Of a stretch of 64,000 bases of DNA, positions 17,086-63,979 are shown in pieces. The notes under the pieces are model-generated. The model was not told where the DNA came from. It ran no database searches and saw only the letters and a list, made by a program, of their open reading frames with translations. The stretch lies in the IMG/VR virus record IMGVR_UViG_3300025466_000015. One strand, given 5' to 3'. Numbering within the stretch: the first letter of the stretch is position 1; every line of letters starts with the position of its first letter. The DNA is from a virus. The translations under genes were made by a program, and so were the position numbers.

Positions 17086-17096
17086 GAGGAAATAAA

Positions 17097-37889: not shown

Positions 37890-38467
37890 GTGATATGATT
37901 ACATTTGATACAACAGATGCATTAAAGACTATTGGCCCCACACCAATCATCAACATTTATGATTTGGTTCCTGAAGATGATCCTATTTTAAGAGAACCTA
38001 TACCTGAATTCAACTTCAATAATCCACCAATTAATCCAAATAAGTTTGCTTCGGCTCTTGTTGAGACTTGTAAGAAATATAATGGTTATGGACTATCAGC
38101 TAACCAGTGTGGTTTTAAACATCGTGTATTTGTAGTTGGTGCTGGTGATGATTATGTGGCATTCTTTAATCCTAAAATTGTTGAAACCAAAGGTGAAGTC
38201 CATATGATGGAAGGTTGCCTTTCTTTTCCTATGTTAGGACTACACATTACTAGACCGGCCGAATTGGTTATTGAATATCAGGATTTTAATGGTGCGACTA
38301 GGACTGGACATTATGTTGGTATGACTGCTCGTTGTATCCTCCATGAGCTTGACCACATGAACGGAATAGTGTATACTAGCAAAGCGAAACCACTAGCTTT
38401 GCAAAGTGGTATGAAGAAACGTAATAAAGTTATGAAAATGGTGAAAAAAATCAATGGCAAAAAGTAA
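37886..38467 (+). CDS. def: Peptide deformylase
   Basis: GYGLSANQ, EGCLS, HELDH motifs. Confidence 0.93.
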   Translation: MSDMITFDTTDALKTIGPTPIINIYDLVPEDDPILREPIPEFNFNNPPINPNKFASALVETCKKYNGYGLSANQCGFKHRVFVVGAGDDYVAFFNPKIVETKGEVHMMEGCLSFPMLGLHITRPAELVIEYQDFNGATRTGHYVGMTARCILHELDHMNGIVYTSKAKPLALQSGMKKRNKVMKMVKKINGKK

Positions 38468-39779
38468 AACAACAATTAGTACACTCTTTGGCGAAGAAGA
38501 GGTTTATGTCACTACCAAAAAAATTCCTCCTCTAGAAGAACAATGGGAAATTTGGCAAAATATGAATCGACCAAATTCATTCAAGTCTATTGATGAAAAT
38601 GAATTAAAAGAAATATTACTTAAAGATTTAACTTATGCATCTCAGATGGATGTTCGTGAATATACTTTGTATCAAAAATGGAATGAAGTACATGAAAAAT
38701 ATCCAACCATTAAAAGAAACACTTTTGATGGAAGCAGTGAGATTCAGTTAGTTGATTCAAAACATGAGAATGATATTAAAGAAATTAAAGAAAACATTTG
38801 GGTACCAGAAAGTCCAGATGATTATGCCAATCTACAACCTACGATGATTTTATCCAATGGTCCTTTGGCTGACAAATGGAATACTCTTAGAACTTTCTCC
38901 TCAACAATGAAGAACAATTCTAATATTGGTCGTAATCTATATTACACGGTGATGGATAAAGTGACACAAAAGTATCTTGGTGTTATTTGTATATCGTCTG
39001 ACTTCTTGGATCTCACTCCAAGAGACAATCACATTGGTTGGCCTAAGACAGTCAAGACTCAAGGCAACATGATTAACCATACGGCTATTGGTTCTACGAT
39101 TGTTCCACTACAACCACTTGGTTTTAATTATATGGGTGGCAAATTACTTGCCTTATTATGTTTATCTGATACAGTACAGAATGATTGGAAAAGACAATAT
39201 GAAGACACGCTTGTTGGTGTTACTACCACTTCTTTATATGGCAACACTAAAGCCGGTGGCCTTTCTCAGTATGATGGTCTTGATTACTGGAATCCTATGG
39301 GTTTCACATCTGGATCCGTAGCATTTGATCCTTCAAAACAAACTATGAAAATGGTCTTTGATTGGATTAAAGAAAACCACACACGCAAATACTTTGAGTG
39401 GTGGGAAGCCAAAAAGGAGACTGGTCTGCCTTTCAAACGTGACCATAAAAACCGTTCATTACATTTTGCTTATAGTAAATTAAAAATACCTAAAAACTTA
39501 ATTCGTTGTGAACATGCTCGTGGAATTTATTTCTCTCCTTTATATAACAATACTTGTGAATATTTAAGAAAAGAAATAGGAGATGACCAATTGATTAAAT
39601 CCTTTGATACGAGCGAGGAAGCTTTGACAAACATTTGGAAAACCAAGTTTGCCAAACCGAGAATAAGACAATTACAAAAGAAAAACAAAGTATCCACGGA
39701 ATCTTTGTTCTATGATGACTTGATATATTTGTCTTGGGAGGAAACTAAGACAAAATATTTACCACAGGTTGGTAGATAA
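38454..39779 (+). CDS. DUF4338 / Druantia DruA-like protein (paralogue 1)
   Basis: GRNLYY, LGVICISSD, PLGFNYMGGKLLALL, TTTSLYG...SQYDG, GFTSG. Confidence 0.7.
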   Translation: MAKSKTTISTLFGEEEVYVTTKKIPPLEEQWEIWQNMNRPNSFKSIDENELKEILLKDLTYASQMDVREYTLYQKWNEVHEKYPTIKRNTFDGSSEIQLVDSKHENDIKEIKENIWVPESPDDYANLQPTMILSNGPLADKWNTLRTFSSTMKNNSNIGRNLYYTVMDKVTQKYLGVICISSDFLDLTPRDNHIGWPKTVKTQGNMINHTAIGSTIVPLQPLGFNYMGGKLLALLCLSDTVQNDWKRQYEDTLVGVTTTSLYGNTKAGGLSQYDGLDYWNPMGFTSGSVAFDPSKQTMKMVFDWIKENHTRKYFEWWEAKKETGLPFKRDHKNRSLHFAYSKLKIPKNLIRCEHARGIYFSPLYNNTCEYLRKEIGDDQLIKSFDTSEEALTNIWKTKFAKPRIRQLQKKNKVSTESLFYDDLIYLSWEETKTKYLPQVGR

Positions 39780-45490: not shown

Positions 45491-46003
45491 ATGAGATTAA
45501 AAGTAGTTAATTGTCCCGATAAAGATTTCAAACCTATTGTAGAAAGAGCAGCTTCTTTCTTTGCCAAAGAATTAATACCCAATACTAGAGTCCGTAACCA
45601 TTGTTTTACCAAGATTAGATTCAATGCTAAGATTTTGGAATATGGTTATGCTAGTGTGGAAGACTATAACACAAGAAATCAACCAAGAGAATTTCTAATA
45701 GAGATTCATCCAGGTATTGGTGCCAGAGATATATTGTCAACCATAGCACATGAGATGGTTCACATTAAACAATATATTGATGGTGAGTTAAATGAAGAAA
45801 TGTCTTACTGGAAAGGTAAGAGAGTAGATTCGGATAAAATGGAATATTGGTATTCACCATGGGAAGTAGACGCCAATGGATATGAAGTTGGTTTGATAAC
45901 CAAGTTTGCCGTTGCTGAATGTCTTTGGGAAGTCTTAGATGGATTTAAAAATCCAGCAACTCCTATAGTTTCTATACCAATAAAATGGAAAAAGAGAAAA
46001 TAA
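45491..46003 (+). CDS. HEXXH zinc metallopeptidase-like protein
   Basis: TIAHEMVHIKQY, PWEVDA; SD AAGGAG. Confidence 0.75.
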   Translation: MRLKVVNCPDKDFKPIVERAASFFAKELIPNTRVRNHCFTKIRFNAKILEYGYASVEDYNTRNQPREFLIEIHPGIGARDILSTIAHEMVHIKQYIDGELNEEMSYWKGKRVDSDKMEYWYSPWEVDANGYEVGLITKFAVAECLWEVLDGFKNPATPIVSIPIKWKKRK

Positions 46004-46265: not shown

Positions 46266-46341
46266 ACCCTCTTAGCCAAGCTGGTAAGGCATCGGATTTT
46301 GATTCCGACATGCGGTGGTTCGAGTCCATCAGGGGGTGCCA
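46266..46341 (+). tRNA. trnQ: tRNA-Gln(TTG)
   Basis: Cloverleaf, anticodon loop TTTTGAT, encoded CCA. Confidence 0.92.
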
Positions 46342-46408
46342 TATAAAAACACATTTGCAACCACATGGGAGTGAGATATCCAAGGGGAGTGTGTTTCTAT
46401 ATGACAAT

Positions 46409-46499
46409 GGAAGATAATGCAGCTGGGTAGGCCGGCGACCAGCCTTGAAAACTGGGTTCTGAGAAATCGGATGGGGTTCGACTCCTCTGTCTTCCGCCA
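46409..46499 (+). tRNA. trnS: tRNA-Ser(TGA)
   Basis: Loop CTTGAAA, long variable arm, GCCA end; D arm atypical. Confidence 0.85.
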
Positions 46500-46516
46500 A
46501 TTAAAAGGAGTTTATT

Positions 46517-47080
46517 ATGCCTAGTGTATTTCTTGTAAGTGACACACATTTTGGTCATCATGGAGTGTGTCGTTTCACTGGTAAAGATGGTGTTACAAAG
46601 CTTAGGCCATGGGACAATCCAGATGAGATGGATGAAGAAATGGTCAAGCGTTGGAACGAAAGAGTAAAGCCAACTGATAAAGTTTATCATCTTGGTGATG
46701 TGGTGATTAATCGTAAATCTCTTAATATTATGCGTAGGCTTAACGGAGACAAAGTTCTTATTAGAGGTAACCATGATATCTTTAGAGATAAAGAATACTA
46801 TGAACACTTCAGAGAGCTCCGTGCTTATCATGTTATGAGAGGTATGATTCTTTCACACATTCCACTTCATACCGATAGTATTCAAAGATTTGGTACCAAT
46901 ATTCACGGTCATACCCATGATAGGCGTGTAATGATTGGTAATGAAATTGATATCAGATACCATTGTGTATGTGTGGAACAAACAGACTACACTCCTATTC
47001 TTTTTGAAGATGTTGTGAAACGTATTCAAGCAGAAGGTGGTGAAGTTGATTTCAGACAGCATGGAAATAGAGCCATGTAG
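46517..47080 (+). CDS. Calcineurin-like metallophosphoesterase
   Basis: SDTHFGH, HLGD, GNHD, HGHTH. Confidence 0.9.
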   Translation: MPSVFLVSDTHFGHHGVCRFTGKDGVTKLRPWDNPDEMDEEMVKRWNERVKPTDKVYHLGDVVINRKSLNIMRRLNGDKVLIRGNHDIFRDKEYYEHFRELRAYHVMRGMILSHIPLHTDSIQRFGTNIHGHTHDRRVMIGNEIDIRYHCVCVEQTDYTPILFEDVVKRIQAEGGEVDFRQHGNRAM

Positions 47081-47171
47081 GAGATTTGGCCGAGAGGTCT
47101 AAGGCAGCAGGTTGCTAACCTGTCGTATTGAGTAATCAGTACCGTGGGTTCGATTCCCACAGTCTCCGCCA
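47080..47171 (+). tRNA. trnS: tRNA-Ser(GCT)
   Basis: Loop TTGCTAA, long variable arm, GCCA. Confidence 0.93.
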
Positions 47172-47176
47172 GTTAA

Positions 47177-47254
47177 GGTTAGGTGCCAGAGAGGTCCAAT
47201 GGAACAGTCTGCAAAACTGTAAAACCGTGGGTTCAAATCCCACCCTAACCTCCA
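47177..47254 (+). tRNA. trnC: tRNA-Cys(GCA)
   Basis: Loop CTGCAAA, U73, CCA. Confidence 0.93.
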
Positions 47255-47362
47255 TTAATAGTTGACCGGAATAAAGTAATACTAAAGTATTAGGTTGCCA
47301 TTTCAACCAGTTCTGTTACAATACATTTATCGGTTGAGAAATCAATTGATAAAAAAAGTGAA

Positions 47363-47413
47363 GTTGTAGAAATACAACAGGATGGTTGACAAATTATCCC
47401 AATCTGGTATAAT
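47363..47413 (+). promoter_or_regulatory. Sigma70 promoter with upstream palindrome
   Basis: GTTGT-AGAAAT-ACAACA, 6 bp, TTGACA-16-TATAAT with extended -10 TG. Confidence 0.7.
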
Positions 47414-47446
47414 AGAGTCTTGTTCAGTTAATTAAGGAGAAAAATT

Positions 47447-47548
47447 TTGGAATGTTTAAAATGTAGATTTTGGCACTGGCCAACAAATTACACAAAAGGT
47501 GCTCCATGTGATCCTAAATTCATTCCAGTTCCCGTAAAAACGGAATAG
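47447..47548 (+). CDS. 33-aa microprotein MECLKCRFWHWPTNYTKGAPCDPKFIPVPVKTE
   Basis: TTG start after AAGGAG, own promoter; C-x2-C-x3-H-x10-C. Confidence 0.5.
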   Translation: MECLKCRFWHWPTNYTKGAPCDPKFIPVPVKTE

Positions 47549-47560
47549 AAAACAAAAAAA

Positions 47561-47616
47561 GAGTGTTGTCATCGTACAACACTCTGGTTGACAAAGGTAA
47601 TTACCTATGTTATAAT
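47561..47616 (+). promoter_or_regulatory. Sigma70 promoter with upstream palindrome
   Basis: GAGTGTTGT-CATCGT-ACAACACTC then TTGACA-17-TATAAT. Confidence 0.8.
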
Positions 47617-47636
47617 TGTTCTTTAAATTGTAAGTT

Positions 47637-47711
47637 GCTCGGTTCGTCTATCGGTTAGGACACCGCCCTTTCACGGCAGTAAGACCAGTTCGATTCTGGT
47701 ACCGAGTACCA
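47637..47711 (+). tRNA. trnE: tRNA-Glu(TTC)
   Basis: Loop CTTTCAC, CCA. Confidence 0.92.
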
Positions 47712-47920
47712 TACTAAAATACATTAGGTTACCAACTCTAGTAGGTGACTTTTTAGGTTGAAATGCGGGCCGCTGCATACCTTTAAAGTTACATGAAGCC
47801 TTCCGATGGCGCTAGAATCAGTTGAAGTGTAATGTGGAGATTGTCTTATCGGCAGACGAAGCCGTGAGAAGCTGGATGAAGTTCCAGAACGACAATCACA
47901 TCCTAATGTATTTCAGTATG
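47712..47920 (+). ncRNA. Candidate ~210-nt structured RNA
   Basis: Long terminal stem plus internal helices, between tRNAs. Confidence 0.55.
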
Positions 47921-47924
47921 GTGT

Positions 47925-48046
47925 CATTTGTTTTGCTGACGTAAGCCATGGGGGAAACGTCAACCCTGAGTAACTGCGTATATAAACGGTACGTCTAGCT
48001 AGCAATTCCGTTGAGCGTCAGCAAATAGTGCGTCAGCAAAACAAAT
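47925..48046 (+). ncRNA. Candidate ~120-nt structured RNA
   Basis: Perfect 17-bp terminal inverted repeat CATTTGTTTTGCTGACG. Confidence 0.5.
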
Positions 48047-48121
48047 GGTCTCATAGTATAATGGTTAGTACGGTGGCTTGTCACGCCACTAATAGGAGTT
48101 CGATTCTCCTTGGGACCGCCA
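48047..48121 (+). tRNA. trnD: tRNA-Asp(GTC)
   Basis: Loop TTGTCAC, GCCA. Confidence 0.93.
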
Positions 48122-48125
48122 ATTT

Positions 48126-48225
48126 TTAAAATGTGTGTAGCAGTTGAGTCTGCCATAAAACACGGTTCGCCTGTAGCACGGTACTCAGCCCGACATAAAG
48201 AACAGTTACTGACCACACATTTTAA
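48126..48225 (+). ncRNA. Candidate ~100-nt structured RNA
   Basis: 12-bp terminal stem TTAAAATGTGTG/CACACATTTTAA, internal hairpin and possible pseudoknot. Confidence 0.5.
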
Positions 48226-48235
48226 TTTGTTTTAT

Positions 48236-48370
48236 GCTCAGAAACATCCACGCTACGGTTCGCAACCGTGGGTCCACGGTGAGTTCGCTACTCATGGCAG
48301 TTGGAGAGGTAAACACCCCCGCCACAGGGGGTCTCCGGTGAAAGAAGGTGGGATTCCTTCGTGAGCGCCA
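48236..48370 (+). ncRNA. tRNA-like RNA with expanded body
   Basis: GCTCA/TGAGC acceptor-like stem, T-arm-like GAAGG-TGGGATT-CCTTC, GCCA end, three internal hairpins. Confidence 0.55.
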
Positions 48371-48374
48371 ATTT

Positions 48375-48450
48375 GGAATCGTAGCTCAGTTGGCAGAGCA
48401 GCGGACTTTTAATCCGTAGGTCAGGAGTTCAAATCTCCTCGGTTCCACCA
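48375..48450 (+). tRNA. trnK: tRNA-Lys(TTT)
   Basis: Loop CTTTTAA, CCA. Confidence 0.95.
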
Positions 48451-48457
48451 GCTTTAT

Positions 48458-48532
48458 GGAGAGATTAGTTTAGTGGTAAAACCACGGGTTGTGATTCCGT
48501 TATCACGGGTTCGATTCCCGTATTTCTCCCCA
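48458..48532 (+). tRNA. trnH: tRNA-His(GTG)
   Basis: Loop TTGTGAT, G-1:C73. Confidence 0.92.
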
Positions 48533-48539
48533 AGATTAT

Positions 48540-48614
48540 TCCACAGTAGCACAGCGGTAGTGCAGTTGGCTGTTAACCAATTGGTCGTAGGTTCAATCCC
48601 TGCCTGTGGAGCCA
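48540..48614 (+). tRNA. trnN: tRNA-Asn(GTT)
   Basis: Loop CTGTTAA, GCCA. Confidence 0.95.
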
Positions 48615-48621
48615 AGTAAAT

Positions 48622-48706
48622 GGATGTGCCGCCGTAATGGTATGGCAGGAGACTGTAAATCTTCCGGTTTACACCACAGTTGGTTCGATCCCAACCACAT
48701 CCACCA
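48622..48706 (+). tRNA. trnY: tRNA-Tyr(GTA)
   Basis: Loop CTGTAAA, variable arm, ACCA. Confidence 0.92.
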
Positions 48707-48710
48707 TTTT

Positions 48711-48786
48711 GCCCCTATAGCTCATCTGGTAGAGCAACTGATTTGTAATCAGTAGGTGCCGTGTTCGAGTCATGGTGGGGGCACCA
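48711..48786 (+). tRNA. trnT: tRNA-Thr(TGT)
   Basis: Loop TTTGTAA, ACCA. Confidence 0.95.
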
Positions 48787-48792
48787 ATTTTT

Positions 48793-48869
48793 CGGAGTGT
48801 AGCACAGCCTGGTAGTGCGCTTGCTTTGGGAGCAAGAGGTCCAAGGTTCGAATCCTTGTACTCCGACCA
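48793..48869 (+). tRNA. trnP: tRNA-Pro(TGG)
   Basis: Loop TTTGGGA, CGG/CCG-ACCA acceptor. Confidence 0.95.
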
Positions 48870-48963
48870 TTTCATATGAAGGTGTAAATTCTCTACTTGT
48901 AGTCCAAAATTCTTTGGCCTTGTAGGGTTCTGTAAAAATGCCTTTATTCATTTCCGTATTTAT

Positions 48964-49037
48964 GGGGGATTAGTATAATGGGATTACGGCAGCTTTGCAA
49001 GTTGTTTATAGGAGTTCGATTCTCCTATCCTCCACCA
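48964..49037 (+). tRNA. trnA: tRNA-Ala(TGC)
   Basis: Loop TTTGCAA, G3:U70. Confidence 0.93.
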
Positions 49038-49042
49038 TTCAT

Positions 49043-49117
49043 AGTGACGTAGCTTAACGGTAGAGCAAATCCTTCATACGGATTAGGTTGGGGGCTCGAA
49101 TCCCTCCGTCACTACCA
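49043..49117 (+). tRNA. trnM: tRNA(CAT), probably elongator Met
   Basis: Loop TTCATAC, paired 1:72. Confidence 0.8.
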
Positions 49118-49119
49118 AT

Positions 49120-49194
49120 CGGTCCTTAGTAAAATGAATATTACACAGAGCTACGAACTCTGAAGTGGGAGTTTGATTCTCTCAGGACCGGCCA
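49120..49194 (+). tRNA. trnR: tRNA-Arg(ACG)
   Basis: Loop CTACGAA; D-loop GA and T-loop TTTGATT variants. Confidence 0.85.
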
Positions 49195-49200
49195 ATATAT

Positions 49201-49274
49201 ACTCTCATAGTTAAATGGTATAACAGACGCTTGATAAGCGTCCATTACAAGTTCAATTCTTGTTGGGAGTACCA
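49201..49274 (+). tRNA. trnI: tRNA-Ile(GAT)
   Basis: Loop TTGATAA, ACCA. Confidence 0.93.
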
Positions 49275-49276
49275 AT

Positions 49277-49351
49277 ATCTCGTTAGTGTAACGGTAACAT
49301 GCTGGTCTCCAAAACCATGCGATTGCGGTTCGAATCCGTAGCGGGATACCA
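49277..49351 (+). tRNA. trnW: tRNA-Trp(CCA)
   Basis: Loop CTCCAAA, CCA end. Confidence 0.9.
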
Positions 49352-49352
49352 A

Positions 49353-49967
49353 TTATTCTGAAACTGATTCAGCAGGATGCCATTCTGTTGGTGTCACACC
49401 TTCAAGCAAGGTGGATAAATCTAAACCATAATAATAGTCTTCTAATATTTCTTTCATATAATCAAGAACCTCTATTTTGTGTTTGAATTGTTTTAATTCA
49501 CCTTCACGGAATTTAATTTGATCCTGTATGATACTTTTAATGAAGTTTTCACCTTCTTTTTTACGGTTAACCTTATTTAAAATTTTATTGAGCTTGATTA
49601 TAAAACCATTACATGTTATAATGTTATCTTTAATTTGGCCAACGTTATCTTGCATTTCTCTTTTCATTACAAAGATTAAATCATCATGGTCTGGATTAAT
49701 TTTTGTAATGCAATGAGTTGTTAAACCTGCTAACTCTTGTAACGCTTCTGTTCTAATCGGAATATCTTCTTCTATTTTGCCTGTTGCATCATAGTCGGCT
49801 CTTCTGGATGGATCACTAAGTACTTCGTAAGCAAGTTTAATTTTTTTAAAAGTGGTCTCATCACCACCTTTATCAGGATGATGTTGTTGAGCCAAAGCTC
49901 TGTATCTTTGTTTGATTTCATCAAAGGTGCATCTTGGAGATAGTCCTAGTTCATCGTATAAGTTCAT
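49353..49967 (-). CDS. J-domain (DnaJ-like) protein
   Basis: LYDELGL, HPDKGG, AYEVLSD..RR..YD; TATAAATA on minus strand at 49992-49999. Confidence 0.88.
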   Translation of the reverse strand: MNLYDELGLSPRCTFDEIKQRYRALAQQHHPDKGGDETTFKKIKLAYEVLSDPSRRADYDATGKIEEDIPIRTEALQELAGLTTHCITKINPDHDDLIFVMKREMQDNVGQIKDNIITCNGFIIKLNKILNKVNRKKEGENFIKSIIQDQIKFREGELKQFKHKIEVLDYMKEILEDYYYGLDLSTLLEGVTPTEWHPAESVSE

Positions 49968-50010
49968 TTTATTGATTTAAAAGTTGTAAGATATTTATAA
50001 AGGTGGTTAT

Positions 50011-50493
50011 ATGAGAAAATTTGATATAGAAGAAGTTAAATCATTTCTTGCTTCACAAGGACCAGATACTAAAGTTTATCTTGGTGCTGATTCTGAAAGA
50101 GTAAGAGTCAATGGTGTTTGGTATGCAGACTACGCTTTGGCCGTTGTTGTTCATATTGATGGCCGCCATGGTTGTAAAATTTTTGGTTATGTTGAACGAG
50201 AAATTGATTACGACCACAAGAAAAGTAAACCAGCAATGAGATTAATGACCGAAGTTTATAAAGTTTCGGATTTATTTCAATCACTTGCTGAAGTATTGGA
50301 AGACTTCCATGTTGAAGTGCATCTAGACCTGAACAAATCGGATCTATTTGGTTCATCATGTGTAGTACAACAAGCAATTGGTTATATCAAAGGTACATGT
50401 AATATGACACCAATGGTTAAACCAGATGCACCTGCGGCTTCTTTTTGTGCTGATAGATTAAAAAGAATTCTAACAGAACAAGAAGCAGTTTAA
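50011..50493 (+). CDS. RNase H-like YkuK/DUF458 family protein
   Basis: VYLGADS, RLMTEVYK, EVHLDLN, VKPDAPAASFCAD. Confidence 0.75.
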   Translation: MRKFDIEEVKSFLASQGPDTKVYLGADSERVRVNGVWYADYALAVVVHIDGRHGCKIFGYVEREIDYDHKKSKPAMRLMTEVYKVSDLFQSLAEVLEDFHVEVHLDLNKSDLFGSSCVVQQAIGYIKGTCNMTPMVKPDAPAASFCADRLKRILTEQEAV

Positions 50494-50512
50494 TTTTTTT
50501 ATAAGGATTTTT

Positions 50513-50770
50513 ATGAGTTATATTCCATTGAATGGTAAAATTATTGTTGAACGTATTGAAGCATCAAAAGAAACAGCTTCAGGTATTATTTTAAAATCTT
50601 CTGGTGAACCAGATAGAGCAAAAGTAATTACTGTTGCTGATAATTTGGATGAAGTTTCAATTAATGATGAGTTGCTTGTTAATTGGAATGGAGCCGTAAA
50701 ATTAGAAAACGATATTTACAGTATTGACATTGAACATGTTGTTGCTGTATACGATGCCTCGTTAGTTTAA
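50513..50770 (+). CDS. groES: GroES-like co-chaperonin
   Basis: PLNGKIIVER, ETASGIIL mobile loop. Confidence 0.85.
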   Translation: MSYIPLNGKIIVERIEASKETASGIILKSSGEPDRAKVITVADNLDEVSINDELLVNWNGAVKLENDIYSIDIEHVVAVYDASLV

Positions 50771-50829
50771 TGGTAGAACACCGCCCTTACAAGACGGTTA
50801 CGGCAGTTCGATTCTGTCACGAGGTACCA
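50756..50829 (+). tRNA. trnV: tRNA-Val(TAC)
   Basis: Loop CTTACAA, ACCA; overlaps groES 3' end. Confidence 0.88.
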
Positions 50830-50830
50830 T

Positions 50831-50906
50831 GCAACCTTAGCTGATGTGGTCATAGCGGCGGTTTGAAGAGCCGTGGAAGTTGGTTCGATTCCAACAGGTT
50901 GCACCA
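50831..50906 (+). tRNA. trnF: tRNA-Phe(GAA)
   Basis: Loop TTGAAGA, ACCA. Confidence 0.9.
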
Positions 50907-50964
50907 AATAATGTAATACTTGTTTTATATAAATATATCATGTATACCATTTTTAAGGATAGAA

Positions 50965-51426
50965 ATGAGACAAGATATAATAGATAGAAAACAAGATATA
51001 CTCATTTGGATTAACGAAAATCAATCTAAATCTTTTATTTGCAAACAACTTGGATGTAAACCAGAAACACTTGAAAGTTATCTAAAAAAGTTTGGTGTTG
51101 TTTATAAAGGCAACATGGGACTAAAGGGTAAAAAAACAGACAGTAAATATGTTCCAGCTTTGGATTATATCAAAGGTTCTTTTGTTTCCGCACACAAACT
51201 AAAATTAAAATTAATCCGTGATGGTATAAAAGAGCATAGATGTGAATTGTGTAGCACAATTGAATGGATGTCTCAAAAAGTTCCTTTAGAGCTTGACCAC
51301 ATAGACGGAAATCATTATAATAATGAATTGTCTAACCTGAGAATTATTTGTCCAAATTGTCATGCACAACAGGATACTAATTCAGGTAAGAATGTAAAAC
51401 ATCGTAAAAAAATATTGCCCCTTTGA
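50965..51426 (+). mobile_element. HNH endonuclease inside the tRNA array
   Basis: CELC, LELDHIDGNHYNNELSNLRIICPNCH; TATAAATA at 50928. Confidence 0.85.
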
Positions 51427-51501
51427 TGTAACTGGTAGCCATGCGGTCCTTAGAAGTCCGTGCCGAAAGGTGTGAGGGTTCGAATCCCTTGGGGGGCACC
51501 A
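51417..51501 (+). tRNA. trnL: tRNA-Leu(TAG)
   Basis: Loop CTTAGAA, long variable arm, ACCA. Confidence 0.9.
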
Positions 51502-51505
51502 ATAT

Positions 51506-51582
51506 GTGGTTGTGATGGAATTGGTATACATATCAGACTTAAAATCTGAGTTTTGTGGGTTCGAGTCCCACCTTCCACACCA
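51506..51582 (+). tRNA. trnL: tRNA-Leu(TAA), short variable region
   Basis: Loop CTTAAAA; two T-T mismatches in acceptor stem. Confidence 0.82.
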
Positions 51583-51586
51583 TGAG

Positions 51587-51664
51587 GCCCCTGTGGACAA
51601 ATTGGCAAAGTCGTTTCTCTCAAAAGGAAAAATTCTCTCGGTTCGACTCCGAGCGGGGGTACCA
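51587..51664 (+). tRNA. trnL: tRNA-Leu(CAA), short variable region
   Basis: Loop CTCAAAA, ACCA. Confidence 0.85.
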
Positions 51665-51736
51665 GTAATAATGTAATAAAAGTAATAAGAGTAATATCCT
51701 GTGTAGGATGTTAAGTGCTGATGTATAATAACATCT

Positions 51737-52018
51737 ATGAAAAACACTATATTACTCCTATCATTTTTAGCAACTGCCTGTGGCGGAGGTGAACCAAATA
51801 CTTCCGTAACCAAACCATGTGTCAGTAACATTGTAGCAACTATGTCTGAGATGACCTCGCCATTTTTTGAAGGTATGGGTACGCCTGATAGCATTACCAC
51901 ATTTCCTATAATAAATGGTCAACATAGTATTGAATATGATTTTAAATCACTACATAAGAGACTAACATTTATTTGGACAGACCAAGGTGTTTGCCAAGAA
52001 ATAGAAACAACAATTTGA
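51737..52018 (+). CDS. Putative lipoprotein
   Basis: MKNTILLLSFLATAC lipobox signal. Confidence 0.65.
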   Translation: MKNTILLLSFLATACGGGEPNTSVTKPCVSNIVATMSEMTSPFFEGMGTPDSITTFPIINGQHSIEYDFKSLHKRLTFIWTDQGVCQEIETTI

Positions 52019-52093
52019 CTGCCGTTAGTATAATGGATAATACAGCTGCCTTCTAAGCAGTCAATAGAGGTTCGATTCCTCTACGGCGGACCA
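52019..52093 (+). tRNA. trnR: tRNA-Arg(TCT)
   Basis: Loop CTTCTAA, ACCA. Confidence 0.93.
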
Positions 52094-52121
52094 ATAAATA
52101 GTAATAGTTAAGGAGAAACTA

Positions 52122-52454
52122 ATGTCATATATTATTCAACTCGTAAAAAATAAACCGGAAGACAAACAATTTTTTAGATATGGTTATAAAGATTCCGATG
52201 CGAATACTATTGTGAAAAATATTAATAGTTGGATCAATAGTCAACCTGGTCTTATTAGTCGTAACACGCCGCCTCCTGCAGATTTTGATATTGCAAATTC
52301 TAATATAATAATTGAAAGTTTTGAATTTAAATCAAATGTTTTTGCTGAAATATTTCAAGCACAAACCGCTTCAAATCCGGATTGGCAATTACGATTAAGT
52401 TACGAAGCAAACAATTCAATTACATCAACTTGGCAAGTGGTTGAAAATACATAA
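52122..52454 (+). CDS. Hypothetical protein
   Basis: SD AAGGAG, ATAAATA upstream. Confidence 0.6.
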   Translation: MSYIIQLVKNKPEDKQFFRYGYKDSDANTIVKNINSWINSQPGLISRNTPPPADFDIANSNIIIESFEFKSNVFAEIFQAQTASNPDWQLRLSYEANNSITSTWQVVENT

Positions 52455-52456
52455 TT

Positions 52457-52531
52457 GCTCCGATAGCTTAATGGTAAAGCAACCGACTCATAATCGGTTG
52501 AGTCTGTGTTCAATTCACAGTCGGAGCACCA
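52457..52531 (+). tRNA. trnI: tRNA(CAT), probably Ile2 (lysidine)
   Basis: CCGA-CTCATAA-TCGG anticodon arm resembles Ile2. Confidence 0.75.
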
Positions 52532-52549
52532 AGTTTACCACAAGGACGC

Positions 52550-52578
52550 TTGACAAGAGCGCCTATATAAGATACAAT
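52550..52578 (+). promoter_or_regulatory. Sigma70 promoter for the Gly tRNA sub-cluster
   Basis: TTGACA-17 bp-TACAAT, 12 bp before tRNA-Gly(GCC). Confidence 0.75.
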
Positions 52579-52590
52579 CTAATTTTAGTT

Positions 52591-52665
52591 GCGGGTATGG
52601 TGCTAGTGGTAACACAAGACCTTGCCAAGGTTTAGTTGAGAGTTCGATTCTCTCTACCCGCTCCA
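52591..52665 (+). tRNA. trnG: tRNA-Gly(GCC)
   Basis: Loop TTGCCAA, GCGGG/CCCGC-TCCA. Confidence 0.93.
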
Positions 52666-52672
52666 GTTTATT

Positions 52673-52746
52673 GCGGATTTAGTTTAATGGTAGAACGGGA
52701 GATTTCCAATCTTTCGGCAACAGTTCGATTCTGTTAATCCGCTCCA
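52673..52746 (+). tRNA. trnG: tRNA-Gly(TCC)
   Basis: Loop TTTCCAA, TCCA. Confidence 0.93.
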
Positions 52747-52751
52747 GTTAT

Positions 52752-52816
52752 GCGGGGGTTTCAAACAACATTGGGGTCCACCTGATGTCCTAGTGAGAAT
52801 CTAGGCACCCGCTCCA
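52752..52816 (+). ncRNA. D-armless tRNA-Gly-like RNA (65 nt)
   Basis: GCGGG/CCCGC-T-CCA acceptor, T arm CCTAG-TGAGAAT-CTAGG, 7-bp arm with loop GGTCCAC, no D arm. Confidence 0.65.
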
Positions 52817-52835
52817 ATTTATTATGGAGTTCATA

Positions 52836-53027
52836 ATGTCTGATGGTGGCAAAGGAAGTAATCCAAGACCTTTTAGTGTAGACCAAGACACTTATGGTAA
52901 AAACTTTGACGCCATCTTCCGTAAACCTACACCAAAAGAATTAGATGATGAGGCAGCTGAAAAAGAAGCTTTTGATAAATTATCGCAGGGTGGTGAAACA
53001 GTATCACGAAGGACTCATAATCCTTAG
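52836..53027 (+). CDS. Small hypothetical protein (MSDGGKGSNPRP...)
   Basis: SD GGAG; 3' end runs into tRNA-fMet. Confidence 0.55.
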   Translation: MSDGGKGSNPRPFSVDQDTYGKNFDAIFRKPTPKELDDEAAEKEAFDKLSQGGETVSRRTHNP

Positions 53028-53057
53028 TTCTTGGTGCGACTCCAGGCTCTGCAACCA
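52984..53057 (+). tRNA. trnM: tRNA-fMet(CAT), initiator-like
   Basis: C1:A72 mismatch, loop CTCATAA, ACCA. Confidence 0.8.
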
Positions 53058-53100: not shown

Positions 53101-54537
53101 ATGCCTGTAAAAAGTTTTGTAGAATTTGAAAAAGAAAAATACCAAAAGCACATTGACTTTTATGGTAAAATTCTAATTATCGGTTATGGCTCTGTTGGAC
53201 AAGCCATTTTACCAGTTATTTTAAGACACATTGCTGTTGATCCAAAAAACATCACGGTACTAGAACGTGATAATCATAGACACATTTTTATTCACCGCCA
53301 CGGTGGTTCTGGCTGTCACTATGTCAGAAAAGAGATTCTTCCAAGTAATTACAAAAAAGTATTATCAACCTATGTTGGTGAAGGTGATTTAATTATCAAT
53401 TGCTCACTTAATATTGATGCACAAGCATTACTAGAGTGGTGTATGGAAAATGATGTGATGGAAATTGATACATCATTAGAAAGATGGGAACATCATCCAG
53501 ACGAAACAATTCCAAAGTTGTCTGAACGAACATTGTACCATACACATAAAGTTGTTCGTGAAGCTATGATGCAACATGTTGATGGTCCTACATGCTGTGT
53601 GACTCATGGTGCAAATCCAGGTTATGTTACTCATTTGACCAAAAGAGCACTTCTTAATCTAGCCAAGAAACGTGGCAAAAAAGTTGAGATGCCAACAGAC
53701 CGTGAAGAATGGGCTCAGTTGATGAAATCACTAGATGTTAAAGTGATTCATATTGCTGAAAGAGACCAACAAGTTATTAATCAACCAAAAACAAAAGGTG
53801 AATTTACCAACACATGGTCTTGCGAAGGTTTTTGGGCTGAAGGTAGAGCGCCTGCCGAGATGGGCTGGGGCACACATGAAGACAGACATCCAGAAGGCGG
53901 TAAGTCACAAGGTAATGCAGCTTTCTTAATGCAACCTGGCGCTTCTGTATTGATGAAGTCTTGGGTACCAGATGGTGGACAATACAATGGTTACTGTATT
54001 CAACATTCAGAGTCAGTAACAATATCAGAATACTTCACAACAAAACGTGGTGACTTTAGACCATCCGTTTATTACGTTTATCAACCATGTGATTCGGCTA
54101 TTGCTTCGCTACATGAGATGCGTGGTAACGAATTAGATATTCAAAAAGAACAACGTATTCTCAAAGATGAAATCGTTGACGGCATGGATGAATTGGGTGT
54201 ATTATTGATTGGTGACGGCTTCTGCTTCTGGCACGGTTCACAATTAGATATTCACGGGGCTAGAGAATTAGTGGAAGGTGAAAATGCAACATCAATGCAA
54301 GTTGCAGGTTCTATGTTGGGTGCCATCGTTTGGATGATTAAAAATCCGAGAAATGGTTACACAGAACCAGAAGAATTGCCGTTTGAAGAAATCTTGGCCA
54401 TCGGTGACCAATATTGGGAACCATTGGTATCTGTAATGTCTAACTGGACACCAAGCAAGGACACTAACAGTCTATTCTATAAAGAATTTGATGAAAGTAA
54501 TCCTTGTAAATACGAAAACTTTAGAGTCTGGACTTAA
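53101..54537 (+). CDS. hss: Homospermidine synthase
   Basis: IIGYGSVG NAD motif, HGANPG, HIAERD, NTWSCEGF, GMDELGVL, NATSMQV. Confidence 0.9.
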   Translation: MPVKSFVEFEKEKYQKHIDFYGKILIIGYGSVGQAILPVILRHIAVDPKNITVLERDNHRHIFIHRHGGSGCHYVRKEILPSNYKKVLSTYVGEGDLIINCSLNIDAQALLEWCMENDVMEIDTSLERWEHHPDETIPKLSERTLYHTHKVVREAMMQHVDGPTCCVTHGANPGYVTHLTKRALLNLAKKRGKKVEMPTDREEWAQLMKSLDVKVIHIAERDQQVINQPKTKGEFTNTWSCEGFWAEGRAPAEMGWGTHEDRHPEGGKSQGNAAFLMQPGASVLMKSWVPDGGQYNGYCIQHSESVTISEYFTTKRGDFRPSVYYVYQPCDSAIASLHEMRGNELDIQKEQRILKDEIVDGMDELGVLLIGDGFCFWHGSQLDIHGARELVEGENATSMQVAGSMLGAIVWMIKNPRNGYTEPEELPFEEILAIGDQYWEPLVSVMSNWTPSKDTNSLFYKEFDESNPCKYENFRVWT

Positions 54538-54827
54538 TTAGGCACAGCCACAACTCTCTTGACTCCAGTTTGTGGGTCAATCATTTCTTGCCAATGATAA
54601 CCAAACGGTGGTGCTTGCACTACTGGTTGTTGAACAATAACTGAAGGTTGTTCCACATAAACTGGTGGACGAGCTAATTCATAACCAACAACACCACCAA
54701 TCAAAGCTGGTGCAACCCAACCCATTCCGTTTCCACGATAACAACAATATCCACCATGATGATGCCATTGTGCATCAGCAGTTCCTAAAATTGTTAAAAG
54801 TGATAAAGCTAGTAGTGATTTTTTCAT
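54534..54827 (-). CDS. Secreted Pro/Gly-rich small protein
   Basis: Signal peptide MKKSLLALSLL..ADA; GWVAPALIGGVVGY. Confidence 0.65.
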   Translation of the reverse strand: MKKSLLALSLLTILGTADAQWHHHGGYCCYRGNGMGWVAPALIGGVVGYELARPPVYVEQPSVIVQQPVVQAPPFGYHWQEMIDPQTGVKRVVAVPN

Positions 54828-55585
54828 TATAGTCTCCTTCTGTGTATATCGTAAAGATAAGTAACCTCATAAATTCTTGTATGAGTGTTTCTGCTTCCTA
54901 ATACGATAATGATAGAATTATTTAGTTTAGTCACAATACATCCACCAGAAGCAGAGATCCATCCTGTCTTACTTATAGTAAAATCTTTTTTACCAACGAG
55001 TGGATTTGTATTATGATATACAAGTTTTCTTTTCTTTACGATAACTTCAACGGATGTTTTTTTATCTGCTTCTACTATAAATGAATAATTAGCTGCAGCC
55101 TTAACTAGATTAACCAATTGTTTGGCTGAACTGGTATTTCTCTTATCAAGACCTGTTGGTTCATATACGATAGAATCAACCATATTCAAACTTTGTAATT
55201 TTAAATTCATCACATATACACAGACACCAAAACCACCAGGGTATTGTTCGCATAGAGTTTGTGCAGCTCTGTTATTACTATTGACTAAAGCCAATTCTAA
55301 TAAAATTCTTCTTGGCAATTGTGAAGGTAAGGCATCTCGAATTTTAGTACTGAGAGGTACTAATTCATCCATATCTTGTTTGGCATCCAACACAACCATT
55401 GCCACAATCAATTTGCTGATACTGGCTATTGGTTGTATTCTATCTTCATTAGACGCATCAAGAACGGTATTGGTATCTTCGTTTGTGATTAACCAAGACT
55501 TTGCGGTAATTGGTTGCGCTTGGACATTTCCGAGATTAAAAAGTAGGGAGAATAAACATAATATAGAAAAAACAATGCGTAGCAA
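54827..55585 (-). CDS. Serine D-Ala-D-Ala peptidase, family S11 (PbpG/PBP7-like)
   Basis: Signal peptide; SxxK (ASISK), SxN (SNN), KTG; PTGL. Confidence 0.88.
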   Translation of the reverse strand: MLRIVFSILCLFSLLFNLGNVQAQPITAKSWLITNEDTNTVLDASNEDRIQPIASISKLIVAMVVLDAKQDMDELVPLSTKIRDALPSQLPRRILLELALVNSNNRAAQTLCEQYPGGFGVCVYVMNLKLQSLNMVDSIVYEPTGLDKRNTSSAKQLVNLVKAAANYSFIVEADKKTSVEVIVKKRKLVYHNTNPLVGKKDFTISKTGWISASGGCIVTKLNNSIIIVLGSRNTHTRIYEVTYLYDIHRRRL

Positions 55586-55616: not shown

Positions 55617-55784
55617 TTATTTGCTCAATTTAAGATACAATAATACTATAGCCATAGCAAACACATATAAGCAAAGGAAAAAACCAAGTATAATTTTTAC
55701 TGATAAAGTCAGAAAAAAATCAGAAAAAGACATAGTTTCTTGTTCATCAATTTCATCATCTTGATTGTTGTTGTAATTCGGCAT
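55617..55784 (-). CDS. 55-aa single-pass membrane protein
   Basis: Translated by hand: MPNYNNNQDDEIDEQETMSFSDFFLTLSVKIILGFFLCLYVFAMAIVLLYLKLSK; fills the gap in the operon. Confidence 0.45.
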   Translation of the reverse strand: MPNYNNNQDDEIDEQETMSFSDFFLTLSVKIILGFFLCLYVFAMAIVLLYLKLSK

Positions 55785-56577
55785 CTTCTTTTTGTAATTG
55801 TTCTTCGTATTGTTGCAATTCTAATAAATGCAATCTTCTACGTTCTGCTTGATGTTGTTTAATAACTTCTGGTTCTAATTCTGGCCATCTCTGTTTTCTA
55901 TCGTATGAGATATAAGCCATTAATAAAGTCATAGTTAATCCTAAAACAATAACAAAGCCACCATAACTTAATTCTGTCATGTACAATTTAAATTTTTCTC
56001 TTTTTCTGGCTGCAGCTCTTTCTTCATCACGGAGTTTTTTCTTGAGTAAGAATTTTTGTTCTACACCCATACTTTTCATCATCTCACTAACATCAGTCCA
56101 TAAAGCACCTAATTCTGGTGGTGCGTTGTAAATCATCATCTCACGGAGTTCAACTTGCATCTGTTCAAGTTGTTTTTTCATTAGAACAAGTTGTAGAGCA
56201 CGTTTACCTAGACTTGAATCTCCTGTGTATAATTCTTCACGGTTCTTTCTTTCTTCTTCTTCAATCACGGCCATACATTTTGTCATGGCATCAAAGAAGT
56301 CGCCAAGGTAATTACCAAGTTCAGTATAAATGCCAGTAGTTTCACCACCACGTTTATTCAATTCAATGACACGATTCTTCTCTTGTATGAATTGATTTTT
56401 CACCTCAACGGAAACTGGAGTTCCGGGTGGATGTGCTTTGTGGAACTGGTCGTCAAGATCCTTGAGGACGGATTTAACCTCCCCAGCAGCACCCTTGATG
56501 TCTTTATATAATTGGCAACCTTTTTTAACGGCCGCAACTGCTCCGTTTGCTAGAGCAAACAGCGTAATCGGATCCAT
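55756..56577 (-). CDS. Coiled-coil membrane protein
   Basis: MDPITLFALANGAVAAVK N-terminus, helical body, one TM segment near C-terminus. Confidence 0.65.
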   Translation of the reverse strand: MDPITLFALANGAVAAVKKGCQLYKDIKGAAGEVKSVLKDLDDQFHKAHPPGTPVSVEVKNQFIQEKNRVIELNKRGGETTGIYTELGNYLGDFFDAMTKCMAVIEEEERKNREELYTGDSSLGKRALQLVLMKKQLEQMQVELREMMIYNAPPELGALWTDVSEMMKSMGVEQKFLLKKKLRDEERAAARKREKFKLYMTELSYGGFVIVLGLTMTLLMAYISYDRKQRWPELEPEVIKQHQAERRRLHLLELQQYEEQLQKEDAELQQQSR

Positions 56578-62619: not shown

Positions 62620-62870
62620 TTAAAAAGTTTTTTTCACATTGGATATGGCCTTGGACTTGGTTTCCAGGATTTTCTTTAATTGATGAAGGCAGCCGCATGG
62701 CTCATGAATATACAGATGAAAAATCCAGAGAAGAAATTTCTCGCATTTATAAAGAATACTATGAAGAAGCAACATCTCCATTAGTTAATCCATTAAAATT
62801 TGATCCTTTAAATCCTCCAAAAGGCTGGGCATTTGATCCTTACTATTGCATATGGCATCCATACAAATGA
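62616..62870 (+). CDS. Hypothetical protein
   Basis: Coupled ORF; FDPLNPPKGWAFDPYY. Confidence 0.55.
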   Translation: MIKKFFSHWIWPWTWFPGFSLIDEGSRMAHEYTDEKSREEISRIYKEYYEEATSPLVNPLKFDPLNPPKGWAFDPYYCIWHPYK

Positions 62871-63979
62871 ATTTAACAACTGAAGAAGCACTATATTGTT
62901 CTAAGGCATTTCAAGATTACTTTGCTAATTTTGGTGATATTGAACAATACATGAGAGATGAGAAATTAAAATCTCTTGATTCTATTGGATCATCACTATT
63001 TCCACCTGAAGACGATTTGTTTTCAGACTTCTCTATGCACCCAAAAGACATGGATATTGAAGTAATTGAAATGAATGGTGCTATGTGGGAAACATTATTG
63101 AGTATCACTTCATCACACGTTAATAAAGCACCTGTTGGTCGCAATATACAATTGGCTGTCAGAGAAAAGAACACAGGAAAGATTCTAGGATTCATTAGAC
63201 TTGGTTCGCCAGTCATCTATATGAAACCCCGAAATGAAATGCTTGGACAAGTTTGGATACAGAACAAAGAGTTTCCTAAACGATTCAATGATTCTGCCAT
63301 CATGGGTTTTGTGATTGTACCAGCACAACCCTTTGGATTTAATTATCTTGGCGGTAAATTACTAGCTGCTATCTGTACTTCACACACAGTTAGAGAAATT
63401 GTAAATAAGAAATACAATGCTAATATTTGTTTATTTGAAACTACCAGTCTTTATGGTACGGCCAAAACTGTATCACAATATGACGGCATGAAACCTTATA
63501 TTCGATTCAAAGGATTAACCGAATCTGATATGGTACCCATGATGCACGGTGAAAGATATCAATCACTCAAAGAATATGTTGAGAGCAAAGTTGGTGGTGA
63601 TATATTAGGTGAAGATGAATCAACAACTAGCCGTAAATTGAGAACATTTACTAAGATTATTGCTATGACAAAAGCTGCACTTAAAGGCACACCAGAAGGA
63701 CAACTATTTGAAAAGACTATTGAAGATGCCAAGAATCTAACTGAAAAGAAAAGATATTATACTTCAGATTATGGTTTCAGTAATATGGTTGATTATGTCA
63801 ATGGAAAAACAGACACGTTAATTCCTGGTGAAAACTATGAAAAACATGAATTAAAAAATCTTGTTGAATGGTGGCGAAACAAAGCTATAAATAGATATGA
63901 AACTCTTAAATCTGAGGGTAGATTGCGTACCGAACTAGAAGTTTGGACATCAGGCAAAGACATTCAAATTATTAGGTAA
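62867..63979 (+). CDS. DUF4338 / DruA-like protein (paralogue 2)
   Basis: PVGRNI, LGFIRLGSP, PFGFNYLGGKLLAAIC, ETTSLYG...SQYDG, GLTES. Confidence 0.7.
   Translation: MNLTTEEALYCSKAFQDYFANFGDIEQYMRDEKLKSLDSIGSSLFPPEDDLFSDFSMHPKDMDIEVIEMNGAMWETLLSITSSHVNKAPVGRNIQLAVREKNTGKILGFIRLGSPVIYMKPRNEMLGQVWIQNKEFPKRFNDSAIMGFVIVPAQPFGFNYLGGKLLAAICTSHTVREIVNKKYNANICLFETTSLYGTAKTVSQYDGMKPYIRFKGLTESDMVPMMHGERYQSLKEYVESKVGGDILGEDESTTSRKLRTFTKIIAMTKAALKGTPEGQLFEKTIEDAKNLTEKKRYYTSDYGFSNMVDYVNGKTDTLIPGENYEKHELKNLVEWWRNKAINRYETLKSEGRLRTELEVWTSGKDIQIIR

Follow-up and report, generated by a model that had tools for sequence, protein, structure and literature searches.

Introduction

Staphylococcus aureus and S. 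epidermidis possess non-proteogenic (NP) tRNA-Gly species, NP1-NP3, that are glycine donors for the FmhB, FemA, and FemB transferases (PMC7826273). In their T loop, TGC or TGT takes the place of TTC, and they have a "less tight" A/U T stem that lowers their affinity for EF-Tu, the weak pairs being A49-U65, U50-A64, and A51-U63 (PMC7826273). Among phages, Mu Mom (PF25680, PDB ID: 8BV8) is a GNAT-fold enzyme moving glycine from Gly-tRNA-Gly onto DNA; it discriminates in favor of the body of tRNA-Gly and is likely to recognize the acceptor end, and the paper describing it names neither DruA nor a dedicated RNA (PMC13219725). The present analysis concerns a 65-nt element found in a 64,000-nt stretch of DNA (hereafter "the window") from IMG/VR virus record IMGVR_UViG_3300025466_000015, which is part of an uncultured T4-like phage genome. 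This element, at positions 52752-52816, resembles a tRNA-Gly whose D arm is missing, and is termed mini-tRNA below.

The reading put forward here, to which we give a probability of about 0.5, is that this locus is a functional gene for a tRNA-Gly-derived mini-tRNA that acts as a non-decoding glycine donor, its best candidate user being a GNAT-fold protein of the DruA family. It is based on 58 distinct family members, each 64-70 nt long, from viral metagenome contigs, on the nucleotides that this family keeps and loses, and on the genes that accompany it.

An RNA family with covarying helices

The element is composed of the following parts, all read directly from the sequence:

52752-52816, + strand: D-armless mini tRNA-Gly of 65 nt, scoring 85.6 bits with covariance model R1 and 72.8 bits with model R2
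52752-52758, + strand: acceptor 5' strand GCGGGGG, whose partner strand is 52806-52812
52759-52767, + strand: 9-nt linker TTTCAAACA (as RNA UUUCAAACA) in the place of the D arm, unpaired and without GG
52768-52788, + strand: anticodon-arm-like hairpin with a 7-bp stem and the loop GGUCCAC
52789-52805, + strand: T arm, CCUAG / loop UGAGAAU / CUAGG
52806-52816, + strand: acceptor 3' strand CACCCGC (52806-52812), U73 (52813), and encoded CCA (52814-52816)

The acceptor stem of the window copy contains one mismatch (G6-A67). In the hairpin, strands ACATTGG (52768-52774) and CTGATGT (52782-52788) form 7 bp, two of which are G-U, and the loop GGTCCAC (52775-52781) displays TCC at 52777-52779 and a G in the position of U33. 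The T arm, made of CCTAG (52789-52793), the loop TGAGAAT (52794-52800), and CTAGG (52801-52805), follows without a variable loop. Compared with a canonical tRNA, the window copy has the 7-bp acceptor stem, the 5-bp T stem, the 7-nt T loop with U54 and A58, the discriminator, and CCA, but lacks the D arm with the contact of G18-G19 to Psi55-C56 (Psi, pseudouridine), and U33 in the 7-nt loop.

Standard tools are silent on this element: ARAGORN makes no call at 52752-52816, and Rfam RF00005 does not match there even at E<=10. Its single-sequence fold is unexceptional, with a minimum free energy of -22.3 kcal/mol and a z-score of -1.4. Considered alone, it could for these reasons be a chance structure or a decaying copy.

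The family was assembled from two pattern scans of viral contigs, a structural filter, and the covariance models R1 and R2. R1 describes the 65-nt class alone and misses a divergent 67-nt class; the broader R2 recovers the RNA in records G001 and G017. Part of the loci were ascertained through a neighboring saccharopine-dehydrogenase-like gene, independently of the RNA pattern, and the loci fetched by means of this protein gene already show homologues at the same place, those of L002 and L003 with another hairpin sequence and a GCC loop, that of L013 with another acceptor and T stem. In a structural alignment of 53 sequences, standard pairs fill 96% of the cells; shuffling the columns lowers this value to 65%, and sliding the partners to 34-47%. 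The percentages of the acceptor and T stems are raised by the structural filter, and pairs 1-3 are fixed by one search pattern, but the same nucleotides are found in the loci ascertained by the protein gene. Double-sided changes are observed in 15 of the 19 pairs of this alignment, including all seven pairs of the hairpin, which was not used in finding the sequences. Four of the five T-stem pairs covary, G53:C61 being invariant, and acceptor pairs 5-7 covary across the family.

The region of the D arm forms a reduction series. At one end stands the 70-nt class, with a 3-bp mini D arm (GGU-AUAGA-ACC); GUU-GUAG-AAC is intermediate; and at the other end the 65-nt class has the 9-nt linker. Longer members possess linkers of 10-13 nt or mini D arms of 3 bp, to which the linker of the window copy is homologous, and an A-A-C-A motif is kept throughout the series.

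Since 58 homologues with covarying stems exist, the element is, by sequence comparison, a real gene beyond chance and not a product of decay. A sequence-only reading of the window had described the anatomy given above, which proves correct in every detail, and had argued from the intact stems against decay, an argument now strengthened by compensatory changes in all four helices across a large family; the homologues come from viral contigs, where that reading had proposed a covariance search. No family member was found among the 120 matches listed for the T-loop/acceptor pattern in cellular genomes, versus about 50 of 119 in viral contigs, and the family is apparently restricted to phages as judged by these searches.

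Some loci carry two different mini-tRNA-Gly genes in tandem, as in L017 (5496-5633) and also in L201, L236, L241, L245, L267, and L294. These pairs combine one G33 UCC loop with one U33 loop of the CCC/UCC/ACC type.

Glycine identity and loss of decoding features

The identity set of bacterial glycyl-tRNA synthetase (GlyRS) comprises G1:C72, C2:G71, (G3:C70), U73, C35, and C36 (PMC9976931). It is complete in the window copy and invariant in 58/58 members, so that the glycine acceptor identity claimed from the single sequence extends to the whole family, G3:C70 included. All members also share the pairing of G1-C2-G3 with C70-G71-C72, the encoded CCA, and A58, and each of the 58 hairpin loops contains N-C-C, in the form of UCC, GCC, ACC, or CCC.

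Other parts of the molecule depart from the canonical tRNA. The T loop begins with U-G-N in 52/58 members, with U54 in 52/58, G55 in 53/58, and a variable position 56. Position 33 is a G in 37 members and a U in 18. No D-loop GG is found in the family, and pair 51:63 is A/U in 49/58 and G:C in none. In the window copy, the first T-stem pairs are C49:G65, C50:G64, and U51:A63. By comparison, all 40 canonical tRNA-Gly genes of the same loci possess U55-C56 as well as a D-loop GG, and 36 of the 40 have G/C at 51:63. The parallel with the staphylococcal NP tRNA-Gly, also drawn in the sequence-only reading, is an apt one: both groups have TGC/TGT for TTC in the T loop, and the A/U pair at 51:63 in most family members recalls the weak A/U T-stem pairs of the staphylococcal genes.

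Viewed from its sequences, the family looks selected to stay a GlyRS substrate while losing features used in translation. The mini-tRNA may well receive glycine from host GlyRS and serve EF-Tu and the ribosome poorly.

Promoters and transcription unit

The following features surround the mini-tRNA:

52550-52578, + strand: sigma-70-type promoter TTGACA-17-TACAAT upstream of the Gly trio, a sequence match at 11/12 consensus positions
52591-52665, + strand: canonical tRNA-Gly(GCC), called by ARAGORN (Rfam, 55 bits)
52673-52746, + strand: canonical tRNA-Gly(UCC), called by ARAGORN (Rfam, 67.5 bits)
52836-53027, + strand: 63-aa open reading frame (ORF), starting 20 nt after CCA, with GGAG 7 nt before its ATG

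The mini-tRNA starts 5 nt 3' of tRNA-Gly(UCC), itself preceded by tRNA-Gly(GCC). The promoter at 52550-52578 is one of five near-consensus promoters of the tRNA island. Among the 34 distinct members without a tRNA directly upstream, 22 have a promoter match at no fewer than 10 of the 12 positions (>=10/12), for a background of 3% in random windows of the same loci. The -10 hexamer of these sigma-70 matches ends 8-12 nt before G1, and the member of G040 is preceded by a perfect TTGACA-17-TATAAT. The element is likely a real and stable RNA gene of its own, transcribed with a tRNA or in the manner of one.

No terminator was found 3' of the mini-tRNA, and transcription therefore probably continues into the next ORF. 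The earlier description of a separately promoted trio is retained in part: the promoter match stands at 11 of 12 positions, as a match in sequence, and the unit probably does not end with the third RNA. The 63-aa ORF, which matches no Pfam or PHROG family, is probably co-transcribed with the mini-tRNA. The genes located 3' of the mini-tRNA vary between loci, and by this comparison the ORF is not a conserved partner. It is kept in L001 and L226, and its last 44 nt overlap the next gene, a tRNA-Met (52984-53057). Contigs of four metatranscriptome runs align in this region only through conserved stretches of tRNAs from other organisms; they leave the element uncovered and are silent on its expression either way.

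DruA-family genes as candidate partners

Partner genes were sought by unbiased clustering of all ORFs located at <=4 kb from the RNA in 70 loci. A protein of ~426 aa is encoded directly upstream of the RNA in 12 loci, in which the RNA lies 24-69 nt behind the gene and on the same strand. Its window orthologue is the first of two DruA-family proteins, both above the PF14236 gathering cut-off of 27:

38454-39779, + strand: DruA-family (PF14236) protein of 441 aa with a GNAT-fold core (Pfam E 4.5e-20, 72.4 bits; phrog_19197)
62846-63979, + strand: second DruA-family paralogue, 377 aa (Pfam PF14236 E 1.9e-9, 37.5 bits; phrog_19197 E 2e-131)

According to ARAGORN, the 12 adjacency loci are devoid of canonical tRNAs over their whole length; the association is therefore not a by-product of a tRNA island. 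PF14236 is present in 18/18 searched records that carry the RNA, the divergent 67-nt class included. In G040, the sole PF14236 gene, found beside the family RNA, is of the second paralogue type. Three complete relatives (G002, G003, and G035) lack both the RNA and PF14236; G035, a 170-kb genome, has a RegA 85% identical to that of the window.

The AlphaFold2 model of the 38454-39779 protein has a predicted local distance difference test (pLDDT) value of 92.9, or 93.5 for the core alone, and the top fold matches of this core are all GNATs. In both runs of an exhaustive structure aligner, Mom (8bv8_B) comes first, with Z values of 9.6 and 10.9 and the longest alignments (168 and 170 residues); the match at Z 10.9 has a root-mean-square deviation of 4.0 over 170 of 202 residues. 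FemA is also among the GNAT fold matches, at Z 8.1-9.7. A phmmer search of the DruA-like protein against PDB sequences returned nothing, and no published biochemical function was found in the literature for DruA/DUF4338.

Another neighbor was considered and rejected as a partner. The commonest upstream neighbor of the RNA is a protein of 170-190 aa, represented in the window by the product of 45491-46003 (170 aa), which has an invariant HEMxHxKQ motif, is HExxH metallopeptidase-like, matches phrog_10499 and phrog_16532, and belongs to no Pfam family. In many relatives the tRNA island is bounded upstream by its gene, whose adjacency reflects the conserved gene order before this island.

Several observations touch on the DruA-family genes themselves. 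In L302, a DruA-family gene (10001-11212) and a canonical Mom (PF25680) gene (14041-14868) lie 3 kb apart, without a tRNA within 10 kb. The DruA-positive contig L319 has no mini-tRNA but encodes a 73-nt tRNA-Gly(UCC) with a very small D loop (17069-17141), which may be an intermediate form. In the window, a GIY-YIG endonuclease (37209-37889) and a peptide deformylase (37877-38467) are encoded just upstream of the DruA-like gene.

Proposed function

In the proposed scheme, the mini-tRNA would be transcribed from the promoter at 52550 together with both canonical tRNA-Gly genes, and matured by the host tRNA-processing enzymes, i.e., RNase P and 3' trimming. Host GlyRS would charge it with glycine. 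It would not decode, because the D arm and the elbow contact of G18-G19 are absent, G55 replaces pseudouridine 55, G33 replaces U33, and A/U occupies 51:63, changes of the same kinds as those keeping the staphylococcal tRNA-Gly off EF-Tu and the ribosome. The outcome would be a pool of activated glycine beyond the reach of translation and serving a phage enzyme, which is the most speculative step. By analogy with Mu Mom, the best candidate for this enzyme would be the DruA-family GNAT-fold protein (38454-39779) or its paralogue (62846-63979). That the mini-tRNA supplies glycine to such a protein is a tentative proposal, somewhat less likely than not. Rather unlikely is the most extended form of the scheme, in which the mini-tRNA would be the dedicated, translation-insulated glycine carrier of an unrecognised phage modification system, a private aminoacyl-tRNA cofactor of viral origin, the DruA-family GNAT glycylating DNA or another macromolecule to evade host defence.

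A number of observations weigh against the donor scheme, some of them bearing on the RNA. U33 and a normal-looking anticodon loop are found in 18/58 members, which, from their sequence, could still decode. Bacterial EF-Tu binds acceptor/T minihelices, and for this reason the exclusion of the mini-tRNA from EF-Tu is not guaranteed. Others bear on the genomic association. The window DruA-family genes are located 13 kb upstream and 10 kb downstream of the RNA, hence not adjacent to it; PF14236 is present but the RNA absent in G033, a fragment of 96 kb in which the tRNA island is included; and neither a tRNA nor a family RNA lies within 10 kb of three distant DruA homologues. The co-occurrence of RNA and PF14236 is also confounded by ancestry, since a single T4-like lineage accounts for most of the positive records.

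Other objections concern the link to Mom. The Z value of Mom lies within 1 unit of those of ordinary acetyltransferases, such as AAC(6')-Ib (Z 10.4), and Foldseek places it only 23rd and 26th. The Pfam Mom family (PF25680) is absent from all 27 related records and from the window ORFs scanned, and the DruA-like alignment, compared with Mu Mom by hhalign, reaches a probability of 1.3%. As far as the models tell, DruA and Mom are linked at the level of the fold superfamily only. Furthermore, a near-invariant P-x-Q-P-x-G...G-G-K block of the DruA family is located at the beta4-alpha3 junction, the coenzyme A (CoA)/pyrophosphate site of classical GNATs. As this block sits where CoA-dependent GNATs bind their cofactor, an acyl-CoA donor is possible, and the modelled DruA-family protein may be nothing more than an acyl-CoA enzyme. 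The RNA is never observed without the enzyme, while the enzyme is sometimes observed without the RNA, a distribution that fits an accessory improving the supply for an enzyme that can otherwise use ordinary tRNA-Gly.

Alternative explanations

The alternative that survives best, although improbable, is that of a decoy or sponge. An abundant mini-tRNA would soak up a host toxin directed against tRNA-Gly, for example a TacT/AtaT2-type GNAT acetylating Gly-tRNA-Gly, and the real tRNA-Gly would be spared. The mini-tRNA presents a Gly acceptor end whether charged or uncharged, and the nucleotides recognized by TacT, U73 and G71 (PMC9976931), are both invariant in the family. Strong dedicated promoters would suit an RNA needed in abundance, the phage sets the mini-tRNA beside its own two canonical tRNA-Gly genes, and the lost decoding features would avoid interference with translation. 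However, a pure acceptor-end decoy needs no invariant C35-C36 loop unless charging comes first, and it leaves unexplained both the tight adjacency to the DruA-family gene in the 12 tRNA-free loci and the fact that the RNA never occurs without PF14236. Moreover, no tRNA-Gly-targeting toxin is known for the freshwater host. The linkage to a GNAT-fold DruA-family gene makes the evidence favour a donor over a decoy.

A second alternative keeps the glycyl donor and changes its user, which would be another phage or host enzyme, such as a cell-wall or protein-modifying aminoacyl transferase, the DruA-family protein playing no part. The features shared with staphylococcal NP tRNA-Gly serve this explanation as well as the favored one, and FemA figures among the fold matches listed above. 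A D-Ala-D-Ala carboxypeptidase gene (54827-55585, - strand) and a conserved gene (55756-56577, - strand) lie 2-4 kb downstream, the latter recurring near the RNA in 21 loci. Yet no Fem, MprF, L/F-transferase, or cyclodipeptide-synthase family was found among the window ORFs scanned, and the proximity of the conserved gene follows conserved gene order. As a candidate Fem-like enzyme, the 273-aa product of this gene was rejected, the protein seeming helical, with weak cullin-like hits only. This second explanation has a small probability.

To about the same low degree, the mini-tRNA could be a working decoder, i.e., a reduced tRNA-Gly reading GGN codons in the manner of the D-armless tRNAs of animal mitochondria. 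The hairpin loop of every member does contain a Gly anticodon (UCC, GCC, ACC, or CCC), the 18 U33 members have it in a 7-nt loop, and the member of G040 displays a textbook U-U-U-C-C-A-A loop. In the window copy and 36 others, however, G33 removes the U-turn nucleotide; the family has G55, a variable position 56, and no partner for the elbow; and pair 51:63, which differs systematically from that of the canonical genes in being A/U, points away from EF-Tu use. The canonical tRNA-Gly(GCC) and tRNA-Gly(UCC) genes directly upstream already cover all GGN codons.

The t-elements of plant mitochondria are tRNA-like processing signals (PMC1920247). A comparable role, in which RNase P and 3' nucleases would cut at the mini-tRNA to release or stabilise the downstream mRNA, its aminoacylation being irrelevant, is slightly less probable again. 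In most loci a Shine-Dalgarno sequence and ATG follow CCA by 6-30 nt, in many the promoter, RNA, and small ORF make up a single unit, the element has no terminator behind it, and an acceptor/T minihelix suffices for RNase P. The window shares the acceptor/T minihelix and the downstream ORF with t-elements, but the full Gly identity set and the N-C-C loop exceed their definition: a cleavage signal needs no invariant U73, G1-G3:C70-C72, encoded CCA, or N-C-C loop. In addition, the window tRNA 5 nt upstream would already provide the cut, and the downstream genes are not conserved.

Finally, a decaying, functionless tRNA-Gly duplicate, an idea that the failure of standard tRNA finders and the unremarkable fold (z -1.4) could have favored, has a negligible probability, being effectively refuted by covariation, with 58 diverged homologues displaying compensatory changes in every helix, invariant identity nucleotides, and, in many members, dedicated consensus promoters.

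Genomic setting and other observations

The window encodes structural proteins, gp46/47-type nucleases, a sliding clamp and its clamp loader, RegA, a family B polymerase, UvsX, and a DnaB-type helicase. Its tRNA island (46266-53057) covers 7 kb and contains 26 tRNA genes. The closest cultured relatives of the phage are cyanomyoviruses, with ~50% identity between the polymerases, and the window DNA is present in freshwater metagenomes. Near and distant DNA searches of GenBank phages returned generic tRNA-Gly matches only.

Within the tRNA island are found the genes of a DnaJ-domain protein (49353-49967, - strand) and of an HNH endonuclease (50920-51426). Beyond it, the saccharopine-dehydrogenase-like gene (53101-54537) is kept in 62 viral contigs and adjoins the D-Ala-D-Ala carboxypeptidase (S11) gene (54827-55585, - strand); both are unusual auxiliary genes for a T4-like phage.

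Related contigs display further tRNA peculiarities. In L021, from a T4-like contig with 27 tRNAs, ARAGORN calls a "tRNA-Pyl" with anticodon CUA (10529-10604), which would be an amber-suppressor-type tRNA. Transfer-messenger RNA genes occur in L023 (6594-7016) and L027 (9856-10256), with tag peptides ending in LAA. ARAGORN also makes recurrent "tRNA-Ile(UAU)" calls of 92-96 nt, with the anticodon at position 31-34, in L014 (8113-8204), L021 (4447-4542), L299 (11424-11515), and L300 (12902-12993); these may be odd-shaped or intron-containing tRNAs.

Significance

The mini-tRNA family has a wide distribution among abundant T4-like phages of freshwater and aquatic habitats, and is invisible to standard tRNA finders and Rfam. 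If its members are charged, phages possess an insulated source of activated glycine that they encode themselves. The tRNA-dependent DNA hypermodification newly discovered with Mom would then be extended, and the function of DruA/DUF4338 would become directly testable. A partnership with DruA, if true, would give the first biochemical activity to the DruA family of Druantia type I. Even with the wrong partner, the family is a natural experiment on how little of a tRNA is needed by GlyRS and the processing enzymes.

Comparison with known systems

The phage RNA and the staphylococcal NP tRNA-Gly have in common the Gly identity, the UCC anticodon, a U-G-C/U T loop, the absence of G18-G19, and the presence of normal tRNA-Gly genes beside them. 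The staphylococcal tRNAs have A/U-rich first T-stem pairs, a feature with which the A/U pair at 51:63 in most members of the phage family can be compared. The staphylococcal molecules, full cloverleaves possessing both a D arm and U33, are encoded on the chromosome, occur in staphylococci alone, and are used by Fem transferases. In contrast, the phage RNAs are of 64-70 nt, have a D arm that is lost or reduced to 3 bp, mostly possess G33, are phage-encoded, and have no Fem gene nearby. Separately, four cellular contigs from metagenome-assembled genomes (L406, L429, L501, and L510), some of the Parcubacteria type, encode tRNA-Gly of 74-75 nt with a UGC T loop and no D-loop GG, i.e., the staphylococcal non-proteogenic signature outside staphylococci.

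Mom resembles the window DruA-family protein by its GNAT fold, and is nominally its best structural match. It differs in that it uses the ordinary tRNA-Gly of the host, without a dedicated RNA, and has no detectable sequence relationship to the DruA-family protein, which is twice as long and possesses additional N- and C-terminal domains. Regarding DruA itself (PF14236/DUF4338), which belongs to the anti-phage systems called Druantia type I, the window proteins fall in its Pfam family, but their genes are carried by a phage and lack DruB-E.

D-armless tRNAs are found in mitochondria, as exemplified by metazoan mt-tRNA-Ser(AGY) and the minimal tRNAs of nematodes, which decode with a normal U33 loop and adapted factors. 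They share with the phage RNA a short connector in the place of the D arm and a T loop freed from G18-G19. The phage RNA, however, mostly has G33 and coexists with full-size isoacceptors. Small stable RNAs, rnaC and rnaD, are also carried by the tRNA cluster of phage T4. Like the t-elements, they are small non-decoding RNAs with tRNA-like ends, located in or beside tRNA clusters and cut by tRNA-processing enzymes; they differ from the mini-tRNA in that a full aminoacylation identity set and an anticodon-like N-C-C loop are not conserved.

No Rfam family and no literature description was found for a D-armless or tRNA-like glycine RNA of phages. To our knowledge, a single bacterial genus accounts for all known non-decoding, donor-only tRNAs, and mitochondria for essentially all known D-armless ones. 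What is new here is the combination of these two known ideas, the non-proteogenic tRNA-Gly and the D-armless tRNA, in a new host and a new shape.

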